DNA of 64,000 nucleotides from Escherichia coli (GTDB taxonomy: Bacteria > Pseudomonadota > Gammaproteobacteria > Enterobacterales > Enterobacteriaceae), in assembly GCF_003334305.1 (NCBI RefSeq), contig NZ_QOWS01000018.1. One strand, written 5' to 3'. How positions within the stretch are numbered: position 1 is the stretch's first letter; every line of letters begins with the position of its first letter. This document shows, piece by piece, positions 61,542 to 62,610 of this stretch. The notes under the pieces were generated by a model. That model did not search any database, was not told the DNA's origin, and saw only the letters and a program-made list of their open reading frames with translations. A program made the translations under genes and the position numbers.

Positions 61542-62093
61542 TTATTTAGCAAGTCTGTAATAAGTTGCTCTAGAGATTCCTAACTCTTCCTGAATCTGCA
61601 ACCTCGTCTTACCTTGTGAAATAAGCGTCTGTACAGCCTCTGAAGAAGCCTTTACAGGCCTCCCCATATGTACCCCTTCAGCTTTAGCACGTTCAATACC
61701 AGCCTTTCTACGCTCTGCTATCAAGCTTCTTTCAAGCTGTGCCAACGTTGACATAATGCCTAACATTGCTTCACCCATAGCGCTTGATAAGTCAAACCCT
61801 TCTCTAAGGCTGATAACTGTCACACCTTTAGCCTGTAGCGCTTTAACCGTTGATAACACATCAATTGTGTCACGTCCAAGACGGTCTACAGCTACCACAA
61901 CTACGGTGTCACCTTCTCGTGCATAAGCTAACAAACTACTGAAACCGTTTCTTAAAGAAGCTTTGACAGAACCACTGACAGCTTCATCAGTGAACCATTT
62001 AGCAATGTTGTACCCTGCCTCTTCAATTTGCATTTGCTGGTTAGTGATGGATTGGTCATCTGTACTCACCCTGCAATATCCAAGTATCGCCAT
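61542..62093 (-). CDS. Small serine recombinase of the resolvase/invertase family (183 aa)
   Basis: MAILGYCRVSTDDQ catalytic motif, C-terminal HTH; GGGGGA RBS. Confidence 0.85.
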   Translation of the reverse strand: MAILGYCRVSTDDQSITNQQMQIEEAGYNIAKWFTDEAVSGSVKASLRNGFSSLLAYAREGDTVVVVAVDRLGRDTIDVLSTVKALQAKGVTVISLREGFDLSSAMGEAMLGIMSTLAQLERSLIAERRKAGIERAKAEGVHMGRPVKASSEAVQTLISQGKTRLQIQEELGISRATYYRLAK

Positions 62094-62108
62094 ACATCCC
62101 CCTTAGAA

Positions 62109-62230
62109 GTCTCAAAAGTTAGTCTCATAAGTTTAGCTGTCTCATAATCCAAAAACAACCTTTTGAGACTACTTGAGGGTGCATTCTACCGTTACGTTGA
62201 AAGTGTCTCAAAAGGAAGTCCTTTTAAGAC
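62109..62230. promoter_or_regulatory. res-like recombination site: six GTCTCA(A/T)AAG half-sites in direct and inverted pairs
   Basis: Half-sites at 62109, 62122, 62139 (forward), 62161 (reverse), 62195 (forward), 62221 (reverse); fit TGTCYNNTA-type resolvase sites. Confidence 0.55.
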
Positions 62231-62610
62231 TGGTTATGAAGGAGCTATGAAGATTTTAGGAGGGTAACTATAACCATCACTTTCTAACTTTCACGTAGGA
62301 AATCGTTAAGTTTCTTGATAGTTACACCATGTGACCAACTATCTATATATCGTTATATAGCCCTGTATATAACACTTTTCTAGGAGTCGAGAGAGGGACG
62401 ACTAACACGATACAGTTTACCCTGAAAAGAGACTTCACAGATTCTCTATATATTTCAATAAGTTAGGCTAAAAAGAGACTATACCGATACTGTATAGAAT
62501 CTGTGTAGAATTGCTTAGATACTTGGAAAAATGCCTTTAAATTGAATAGGTACTAACCTGTTTATGTCCTGTTATTAACAGGTAGTTGAATGTACGTGTT
62601 TAGCTATGTA

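Follow-up and report, generated by a model that had tools for sequence, protein, structure and literature searches.

The window analysed here, a 64,000-nucleotide stretch of DNA that matches Escherichia coli strain A7 (NZ_CP028767.1) at 100% identity, carries near its right-hand end a gene for a small serine recombinase and, beside the start of that gene, six short half-sites arranged like a res site. Gene and site make up what we call the cassette, or the recombinase/res module, and lie inside a chromosomal integrative element. The cassette has the following features.

61542 to 62093, minus strand: small serine recombinase gene, an open reading frame (ORF) of 183 amino acids (aa) with an ATG start
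62097 to 62104, minus strand: ribosome-binding site AAGGGGGA, read off the sequence, its end 3 nucleotides (nt) from the ATG
62109 to 62133, plus strand: accessory subsite III-like, head-to-tail half-sites 62109-62120 GTCTCAAAAGTT and 62122-62133 GTCTCATAAGTT, from pattern search and weight matrix
62139 to 62169, no strand assigned: accessory subsite II-like, inverted half-sites 62139-62150 (plus) and 62158-62169 (minus), from pattern search, repeat finder and weight matrix
62183 to 62211, minus strand: best sigma-70-like promoter candidate for the recombinase, 10 of 12 consensus positions
62205 to 62230, no strand assigned: crossover subsite I-like, 12-2-12 inverted repeat GTCTCAAAAGGA-AG-TCCTTTTAAGAC, from the repeat finder

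The recombinase and its half-site array

The domain layout of the 61542-62093 product places it in the small serine recombinase superfamily. An N-terminal Resolvase domain (Pfam PF00239, E 8e-42, aa 4-141) is followed by a C-terminal helix-turn-helix (HTH) domain (HTH_7, PF02796, E 1.7e-5), the order being a catalytic domain (about aa 1-140), a GRP arm and the DNA-binding domain (aa 144-180). The best solved relative was gamma-delta resolvase (E 3e-31, 112 bits, 38% identity); other solved relatives were Tn3 resolvase (104 bits), Gin invertase (81 bits, E 8e-22) and Sin (54 bits, E 1.5e-13). Its best phage-family match was PHROG 125, 'DNA invertase' (E 2e-57), and its top NCBIfam match the Mpi invertase family, at 94 bits far under the 272-bit cut-off. 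No PADLOC defence-system model matched the recombinase. Phage proteins are at most 41% identical to it, and the module was found in no phage record at the DNA level. The nearest plasmid proteins are about 50% identical; the 'Res' proteins of N. gonorrhoeae conjugative plasmids are 50% identical over 91% of the query.

Is the active site intact? In an alignment of 113 homologues, down to 52% identity, we observed that Y6, R8, S10, D36, R48, D70, R71, R74, E121, R128 and G144-R145 were invariant or nearly so, and the catalytic set of gamma-delta (Y6, R8, S10, D36, R45, D67, R68, R71, E118, R125) was matched in full by the recombinase. Judged from this alignment, the recombinase is catalytically competent, its active site being intact, and the invariance of these residues points to selection on catalysis, beyond DNA binding alone. 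Y57 and R59 were also invariant. They align with gamma-delta K54 and E56 and hence, by transitivity through gamma-delta, occupy the positions of Sin F52 and R54. In Sin, these two residues couple the accessory and crossover sites, and the R54E change cuts res x res recombination about 1000-fold (PMC2428073).

The array was delimited by a search of the whole window for GTCTCAWAAG with at most one mismatch. It returned matches at 62109+, 62122+, 62139+, 62160-, 62205+ and 62221-, four of them exact; the remaining two, GTCTCATAAT and GTCTTAAAAG, carry one mismatch each. Hence, the half-site consensus GTCTCA(A/T)AAG proposed in the first-pass annotation of this DNA stands for four of the six and was slightly too strict for the other two. 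Only four further matches occur elsewhere in the 64 kilobases (kb), with about 6.6 expected by chance (about 0.0125 per 122 base pairs [bp]). A Poisson estimate puts six matches within 122 bp at about 5e-15 per stretch, and below 1e-9 over all positions. We also scored the window with a weight matrix derived from six loci (36 half-sites in total), whose 12-bp consensus is GTCTCAAAAGGA. Five of the six scored 15.8-19.3 bits and the sixth 11.1 bits, and the best score elsewhere in the window was a solitary 13.8 bits. Independently, a repeat finder returned the 12-nt arms 62205-62216 and 62219-62230, which are 92% complementary and 2 nt apart.

The six half-sites fall into three subsites. Those of subsite III lie 13 bp apart from start to start, forming a tandem repeat of period 13 in two copies. 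Subsite II measures 31 bp in total, with an A-rich 7-bp spacer, and is conserved in the cross-lineage alignment described below. A further 35-bp spacer separates it from subsite I, which of the three is farthest from the recombinase gene and whose central AG (62217-62218) is the predicted point of strand exchange. The weight matrix revealed no second or inverted crossover-like site, and no other strong half-site or pair, in the 64-kb window. The putative promoter, the best match within 61300-62700, consists of a -35 element TTGAGA (62211-62206) inside half-site 5, a 17-bp spacer and a -10 element TAGAAT (62188-62183); the -10 (GCATTCT on the plus strand) is conserved in six of nine lineages. 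An IHF consensus, WATCAANNNNTTR, was found in the spacer in three of nine lineages and was absent from the window; we did not use it as evidence.

Homologues 52-99% identical to the recombinase are abundant in Enterobacterales and reach Aeromonas. A scan of species-representative genomes gave only three loci, and diversity was therefore gathered via protein clusters; the loci compared came from E. coli, E. albertii, Enterobacter, Klebsiella, Raoultella, Yersinia, Cronobacter, Citrobacter and Aeromonas. Within the 140 bp upstream of the recombinase homologues we found the same layout, with the offsets of the six half-sites (first, +13, +17, +21, +44 or +45, +16) and their orientations kept in all nine lineages and the spacers diverged. 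The position and 13-bp spacing of subsite III were kept in 9/9, and the 12-2-12 geometry of subsite I was exact throughout. Its central dinucleotide was AG, GA or CT, palindromic in none of the nine. In Aeromonas, where the protein is 54% identical, GTCTCA has given way to a GGCTCA-like core in each of the six half-sites. As the six shifted together, the site has changed along with the protein.

Two E. coli alleles of the gene, one in the window and the other in two further loci (L004 and L010), differ only within 61713-62087 (aa 3-127, about 55% identical; DNA 52-76%). Their arm and HTH domain (aa 128-183) and the whole res site are near-identical, the DNA on either side of the differing segment, which takes in both, being 96-100% identical. 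That HTH and res are shared by alleles with differing catalytic domains fits an HTH domain that reads these half-sites. The swap itself is sharp, a domain-sized replacement.

By comparative criteria, the 62109-62230 stretch is functional as a res site. The first-pass annotation had proposed a 183-aa resolvase-type serine recombinase and a multi-subsite, res-like site. Both proposals are borne out, the one by the Resolvase and HTH_7 domains and the match to gamma-delta, the other by the six half-sites, their cross-genus layout and their co-variation with the protein.

The island and the distribution of the module

Comparison with the empty K-12 site defined the element, which has these outer features.

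50673 to 62619, no strand assigned: integrative element carrying the recombinase/res module, from the K-12 empty-site comparison
50745 to 52388, plus strand: large serine recombinase, 547 aa, presumed integrase (PHROG 95 'integrase', E 5e-78), abutting the left junction

The 11.9-kb element lies within the 5' end of wrbA, with a short core, AAAGCAC, present at each of its two junctions. The large serine integrase presumably made this insertion; its gene forms the left end of the element and the recombinase/res module the right end. The first codons of wrbA (50660-50700 area) were replaced by the insertion, and a new start is supplied by the element: annotated wrbA (50088-50693) begins within it, and the product has 201 aa versus 198 aa in K-12. 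The interior, all on the minus strand, encodes a 269-aa baseplate-annotated protein, a 722-aa tape-measure-like protein, an HNH endonuclease, several proteins without a family match and a Dam-type methyltransferase. Thus, with the integrase excepted, all other genes of the element share the recombinase's strand and lie downstream of it.

Neither the ORF list nor the RefSeq annotation revealed a Tn3-family transposase in the element, in agreement with the first-pass annotation, or a flanking transposon remnant. No ORF of the roughly 1000-aa DDE Tn3 type is present; terminal inverted repeats were not specifically searched for. RefSeq labels a 236-aa product (55939-56649, minus strand) 'transposase', but it has no Pfam, PHROG or NCBIfam family match, and the name looks unsupported. 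We recognised no replication gene in the 11.9 kb, where this 236-aa protein and a 184-aa protein match nothing, and Rfam returned no known RNA family in the element.

The gene order of the element is fixed (large serine integrase, baseplate-annotated protein, tape-measure-like protein, HNH endonuclease, small unknowns, variable right part). It recurs at tonB/yciI and yecE in other strains, giving at least three chromosomal sites with wrbA, and the integrase alleles differ among the copies at wrbA, tonB/yciI and yecE. Of 5426 complete E. coli genomes, 488 carry the backbone, O157:H7 among them, with up to four copies per genome. This element of about 12 kb looks like an undescribed family of satellite-like islands; we found no paper on it in the library searched. 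Nor did the library yield a paper on this recombinase family or its site, and a search with the half-site sequence gave nothing relevant.

How widely is the module itself distributed? BLAST with the 145-bp site placed the whole res site at one position in A7 and in 228 of the 5426 complete E. coli genomes, always on the chromosome; the median number per genome was one and the highest two. No E. coli plasmid carried the module. The only plasmid records above 60% identity were two near-identical ones from K. pneumoniae (67%), and the one inspected has chromosomal genes beside a satellite-like island. All of the listed E. coli matches that span gene and site are colinear with the query across subsite I, and none is rearranged. 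In IMG/VR we found no packaged or circular form, gene and subsite I being confined there to two predicted prophages, each about 50 kb long. Related elements at yecE and yciI, including those of E. coli O157:H7, lack the recombinase, and presence of the module varies within the variable region of otherwise similar elements.

The small islands that carry homologues of the recombinase outside this element fall into at least four kinds; their integrases are tyrosine or large serine enzymes, and anti-phage cargo almost always lies beside the homologue. AbiTii genes adjoin a homologue in islands with large serine integrases, and both an AIPR protein and SMODS with S_4TM and TIR genes do so in islands with tyrosine integrases. 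DarT-NADAR lies beside a homologue in a P4-like island, a DprA-like/PRTase pair in an Aeromonas island, and a metallo-beta-lactamase-fold gene directly beside another homologue. The Klebsiella and Raoultella islands carry a major-capsid gene. In the window, the neighbour of the recombinase is the methyltransferase, which gave the only PADLOC match among the neighbours ('orphan MTase'). Its gene (59972-60640, minus strand) starts about 900 bp downstream of the recombinase gene. Like the recombinase arm, the methyltransferase has a GRP motif, followed at the C terminus by an HTH of the resolvase type (Pfam HTH_7, E 6e-4, aa 177-217).

The non-coding parts of the element merit a brief description. 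Two stretches of about 1 kb (58944-59971 and 60641-61541) contain no ORF above about 70 aa in an otherwise compact element, and related elements have longer unannotated stretches, for example 12829-15355 of locus L008. Within the second stretch lie imperfect GGT-rich repeats, each about 15 bp long (61226-61277), which share 73-79% identity with repeat regions in Felixounavirus phages. A terminator-like hairpin follows on the plus strand (61313-61334); 61214-61334 had no Rfam match and could be a small RNA or a phage-site mimic. Beyond the cassette, the non-coding right end (62231-62619) was kept in all five of the inspected relatives that lack the recombinase, usually from 62231 onwards. It includes an 11-bp tandem, CTGTATAGAAT x2, at 62490-62511 and two weaker promoter-like matches on the minus strand. 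The attachment site of the integrase probably lies here, together with regulatory signals. In some strains this segment is longer by an insert of 25-60 bp, located near 62262 in ZJ3920. In a further locus (L011; E. coli RM9975, O111:H8 strains), the recombinase/res end lies at yciI with the rest of the island missing, and adjoins a lambdoid prophage and an IS1203 copy. This arrangement suggests tandem occupation or replacement at the yciI attachment site.

Candidate functions of the cassette

What might the cassette do for its island? The reading we favour, and think probable though far from secure, is that of an autoregulated res/resolvase cassette that reduces dimers or tandem copies of the element to single copies. 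Three recombinase dimers would bind 62109-62230, one each at subsites I, II and III. When two directly repeated res copies are on one supercoiled molecule, their accessory subsites would intertwine and so activate strand exchange; exchange at the centre of subsite I would then delete the DNA between the two copies. Two direct copies could arise from a dimer of the excised element, from tandem integration or from fusion of related islands, and in each case multimers or tandem copies would be brought down to single ones. Transcription would start between the distal and middle subsites and run through subsites II and III, and the bound recombinase would also repress its own gene. Such self-repression is expected from a -35 element inside subsite I and a transcript that passes through II and III. 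Binding, crossover point, resolution outcome and autoregulation are all inferred.

Several observations speak for resolution. The array is laid out like a res site: it spans about 120 bp, divides into three subsites of dimer size and has the crossover subsite distal to the gene. The greater similarity of the protein to the gamma-delta and Tn3 resolvases than to Gin or Sin supports the same reading. Accessory subsites limit resolvases to directly repeated sites on one supercoiled molecule. Since A7, like most genomes, has just one copy of the whole site, a partner site would become available only by duplication of the element. Of the functions named in the first-pass annotation, multimer resolution fits best. 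Its alternative of inversion is not supported: neither a second nor an inverted crossover site turned up in the window, and the listed genomes show no rearrangement at the site. Inverted copies of the site, which it had suggested seeking elsewhere, were found neither in the window by weight matrix nor in A7, where BLAST, in a search for whole sites and not for isolated 26-bp ones, located a single one. The circular replicating phase that it had deduced was not upheld as more than an inference.

Some points weigh against resolution as the whole explanation. With no replication gene recognised in the element, a circular replicating stage has to be assumed. The module is optional, several relatives including O157:H7 being without a recombinase, and so it is not essential to the life cycle of the element. 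The near-constant anti-phage cargo beside the module hints at a cargo-related role beyond housekeeping resolution. The non-palindromic centre and the head-to-tail subsite III mean that the synapse may differ from both studied models. Finally, this account of recombinase and res is drawn from sequence comparison.

Perhaps, then, the cassette marks or services the variable anti-phage cargo of small satellite-like islands, with dimer resolution secondary? It might do so by occasional res x res recombination between co-resident islands, or by stabilising or mobilising the adjacent cargo. Homologues do adjoin AbiTii, AIPR, DarT-NADAR, SMODS with S_4TM/TIR, DprA-like/PRTase and metallo-beta-lactamase-fold genes on at least four different island backbones; the neighbour in the window is an orphan methyltransferase, and the module comes and goes within the variable region of similar elements. 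Small serine recombinases have moreover been reported as general markers of defence systems, with function unknown (PMC12632615, a 2025 preprint). However, recombinase-less relatives resemble the window from about 62231 on, so that identity breaks at the outer edge of subsite I and not at the predicted crossover, 62217/8, and two Klebsiella loci with an identical recombinase (L014 and L015) diverge about 50 bp past subsite I. Cargo exchange at the predicted crossover is not supported. A first, ungapped reading of the recombinase-less strains had suggested a decayed relic of subsite I; a MAFFT alignment did not uphold this relic, and we dropped it. The recombinase also lacks a PADLOC match, and resolvases with accessory sites, as is established for Tn3 and Sin, strongly disfavour the fusion of separate molecules. 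We consider a cargo device of this kind unlikely, if worth keeping in view. A broader version, in which the cassette is a shared organiser of anti-phage cargo in unrelated satellite-like island families (those with large serine integrases and tape-measure-like genes, P4-like islands, those with a major-capsid gene, and others) and rare res x res events reassort or stabilise that cargo, seems to us a shade less likely again. If true, it would supply a mechanism for the unexplained linkage of small serine recombinases to defence.

Three further alternatives were weighed. The protein might be mainly a transcription regulator, its half-sites serving as operators from which it represses its own promoter and possibly the leftward genes of the island, with recombination vestigial. 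The best promoter does overlap half-site 5, subsites II and III lie between promoter and start codon, and every gene of the element but the integrase is on the recombinase strand, downstream. Yet a pure repressor would be free to lose the catalytic residues, which are invariant in 113 homologues, and the crossover geometry of subsite I is exact in all lineages; autoregulation, moreover, is already part of the resolvase model, so little is added. We regard a purely regulatory role as improbable. A functionless leftover of a Tn3-family transposon, or of a captured plasmid resolution system, would account for nearest characterised relatives that are transposon resolvases and for plasmid resolvases at about 50% identity. 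It is very hard to reconcile with the missing transposase and transposon remnant, with an intact gene and res conserved across many genera and always in chromosomal islands, with a site that co-varies with the protein, and with the purifying selection that the 113-member alignment suggests. Least probable of all, by a little, is a switch of the Hin/Gin/Pin type that flips an island segment or controls a promoter. Its attractions are the PHROG 125 'DNA invertase' and sub-threshold Mpi matches and a 26-bp 12-2-12 site whose non-palindromic centre resembles those of hix and gix sites. But the 64 kb have a single crossover-like site, the whole site occurs once in A7, and the listed E. coli matches are colinear across subsite I. 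Recombinase-bound accessory subsites are no feature of invertase systems, and resolvases match the protein better than Gin does.

Comparison with known systems

The closest counterparts of the cassette are the Tn3 and gamma-delta systems. It shares with them an N-terminal catalytic and a C-terminal HTH domain (38% identity to gamma-delta), six 12-bp half-sites that pair into three subsites of dimer size within about 120 bp, the crossover one being distal, a promoter inside the site with autoregulation likely, and an A-rich spacer in subsite II. The half-site core, (W)GTCTCA, resembles the TGTCYR core of Tn3-type sites. Tn3 res is 114 bp long and likewise has three dimer sites (PMC9943657, PMC2428073). 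The differences are also plain. The centres of subsites I and II lie about 63.5 bp apart, about one helical turn above the Tn3 value, and the central dinucleotide, AT in Tn3 res, is AG, GA or CT here. In Tn3 and gamma-delta, all subsites are inverted and measure 28, 34 and 25 bp, whereas the gene-proximal subsite of the cassette is head-to-tail and its subsite II has 31 instead of 34 bp. The 2-3' interface positions differ from those of gamma-delta (A2, Y57 and R59 in the recombinase). Unlike both, the cassette has no transposase and lies within an integrase-driven chromosomal island. We conclude from the head-to-tail subsite and the differing spacings that it is not a strict Tn3-type res.

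A head-to-tail accessory subsite is instead shared with Sin/res and beta/six; in Sin, the half-sites of site II, an accessory site, run head to tail (PMC2428073). By transitivity, the recombinase also has an arginine at the Sin R54 position and an aromatic residue two positions before it, as in F52. As for Sin and beta, its role would be to resolve replicon dimers and not transposition cointegrates. However, Sin res consists of two dimer sites and an HU/IHF spacer, whereas the cassette has a third, inverted recombinase subsite; it has no consistent IHF consensus, and sequence similarity to Sin is much weaker (54 bits). Given the third recombinase subsite and the lack of a consistent IHF site, the cassette is not a Sin-type res either.

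The plasmid multimer resolvases (N. gonorrhoeae Res, RK2 ParA-MRS) resemble it in being stand-alone resolvases with a site and no transposase, but the cassette family is chromosomal, in small integrating islands and never on E. coli plasmids; this comparison covers the proteins and their setting. Hin, Gin and Pin belong to the same superfamily and also use a 26-bp crossover site with an asymmetric 2-bp centre; such invertase systems, Cin included, further rely on an enhancer bound by Fis, usually within the 5' part of the invertase gene. They differ from the cassette in acting on two inverted sites instead of one, and the cassette has accessory subsites bound by the recombinase and no invertible segment. 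Small serine recombinases beside defence cargo in mobile islands are likewise exemplified by the RADS bait EF_B0058 (PMC12632615), a likeness of setting, and by pipolins (PMC11551731). In pipolins, small resolvase-like recombinases beside large serine integrases have been suggested to resolve and so maintain the circular form (PMC11551731). Neither report gives a recombination site, whereas the cassette has a defined and conserved res layout (PMC12632615, PMC11551731).

Resolvase and res are a textbook device of transposons and plasmids; here they form a chromosomal family in Enterobacterales and Aeromonas, in small integrating islands beside anti-phage genes. Should dimer resolution prove to be all it does, the cassette would add only modestly to a known class. 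Its delimited 122-bp site and its 183-aa protein make the link between recombinase and defence islands testable. By analogy, the cassette would operate as a Tn3/gamma-delta or Sin resolution system does; it is not part of a transposon. Its site mixes these two studied models, matching Tn3 in having three subsites and Sin in having an accessory subsite that runs head to tail, and this mixed layout is a natural test case for accessory-site control of serine recombinases. In kind the device is familiar, and the cassette is a new version of it.

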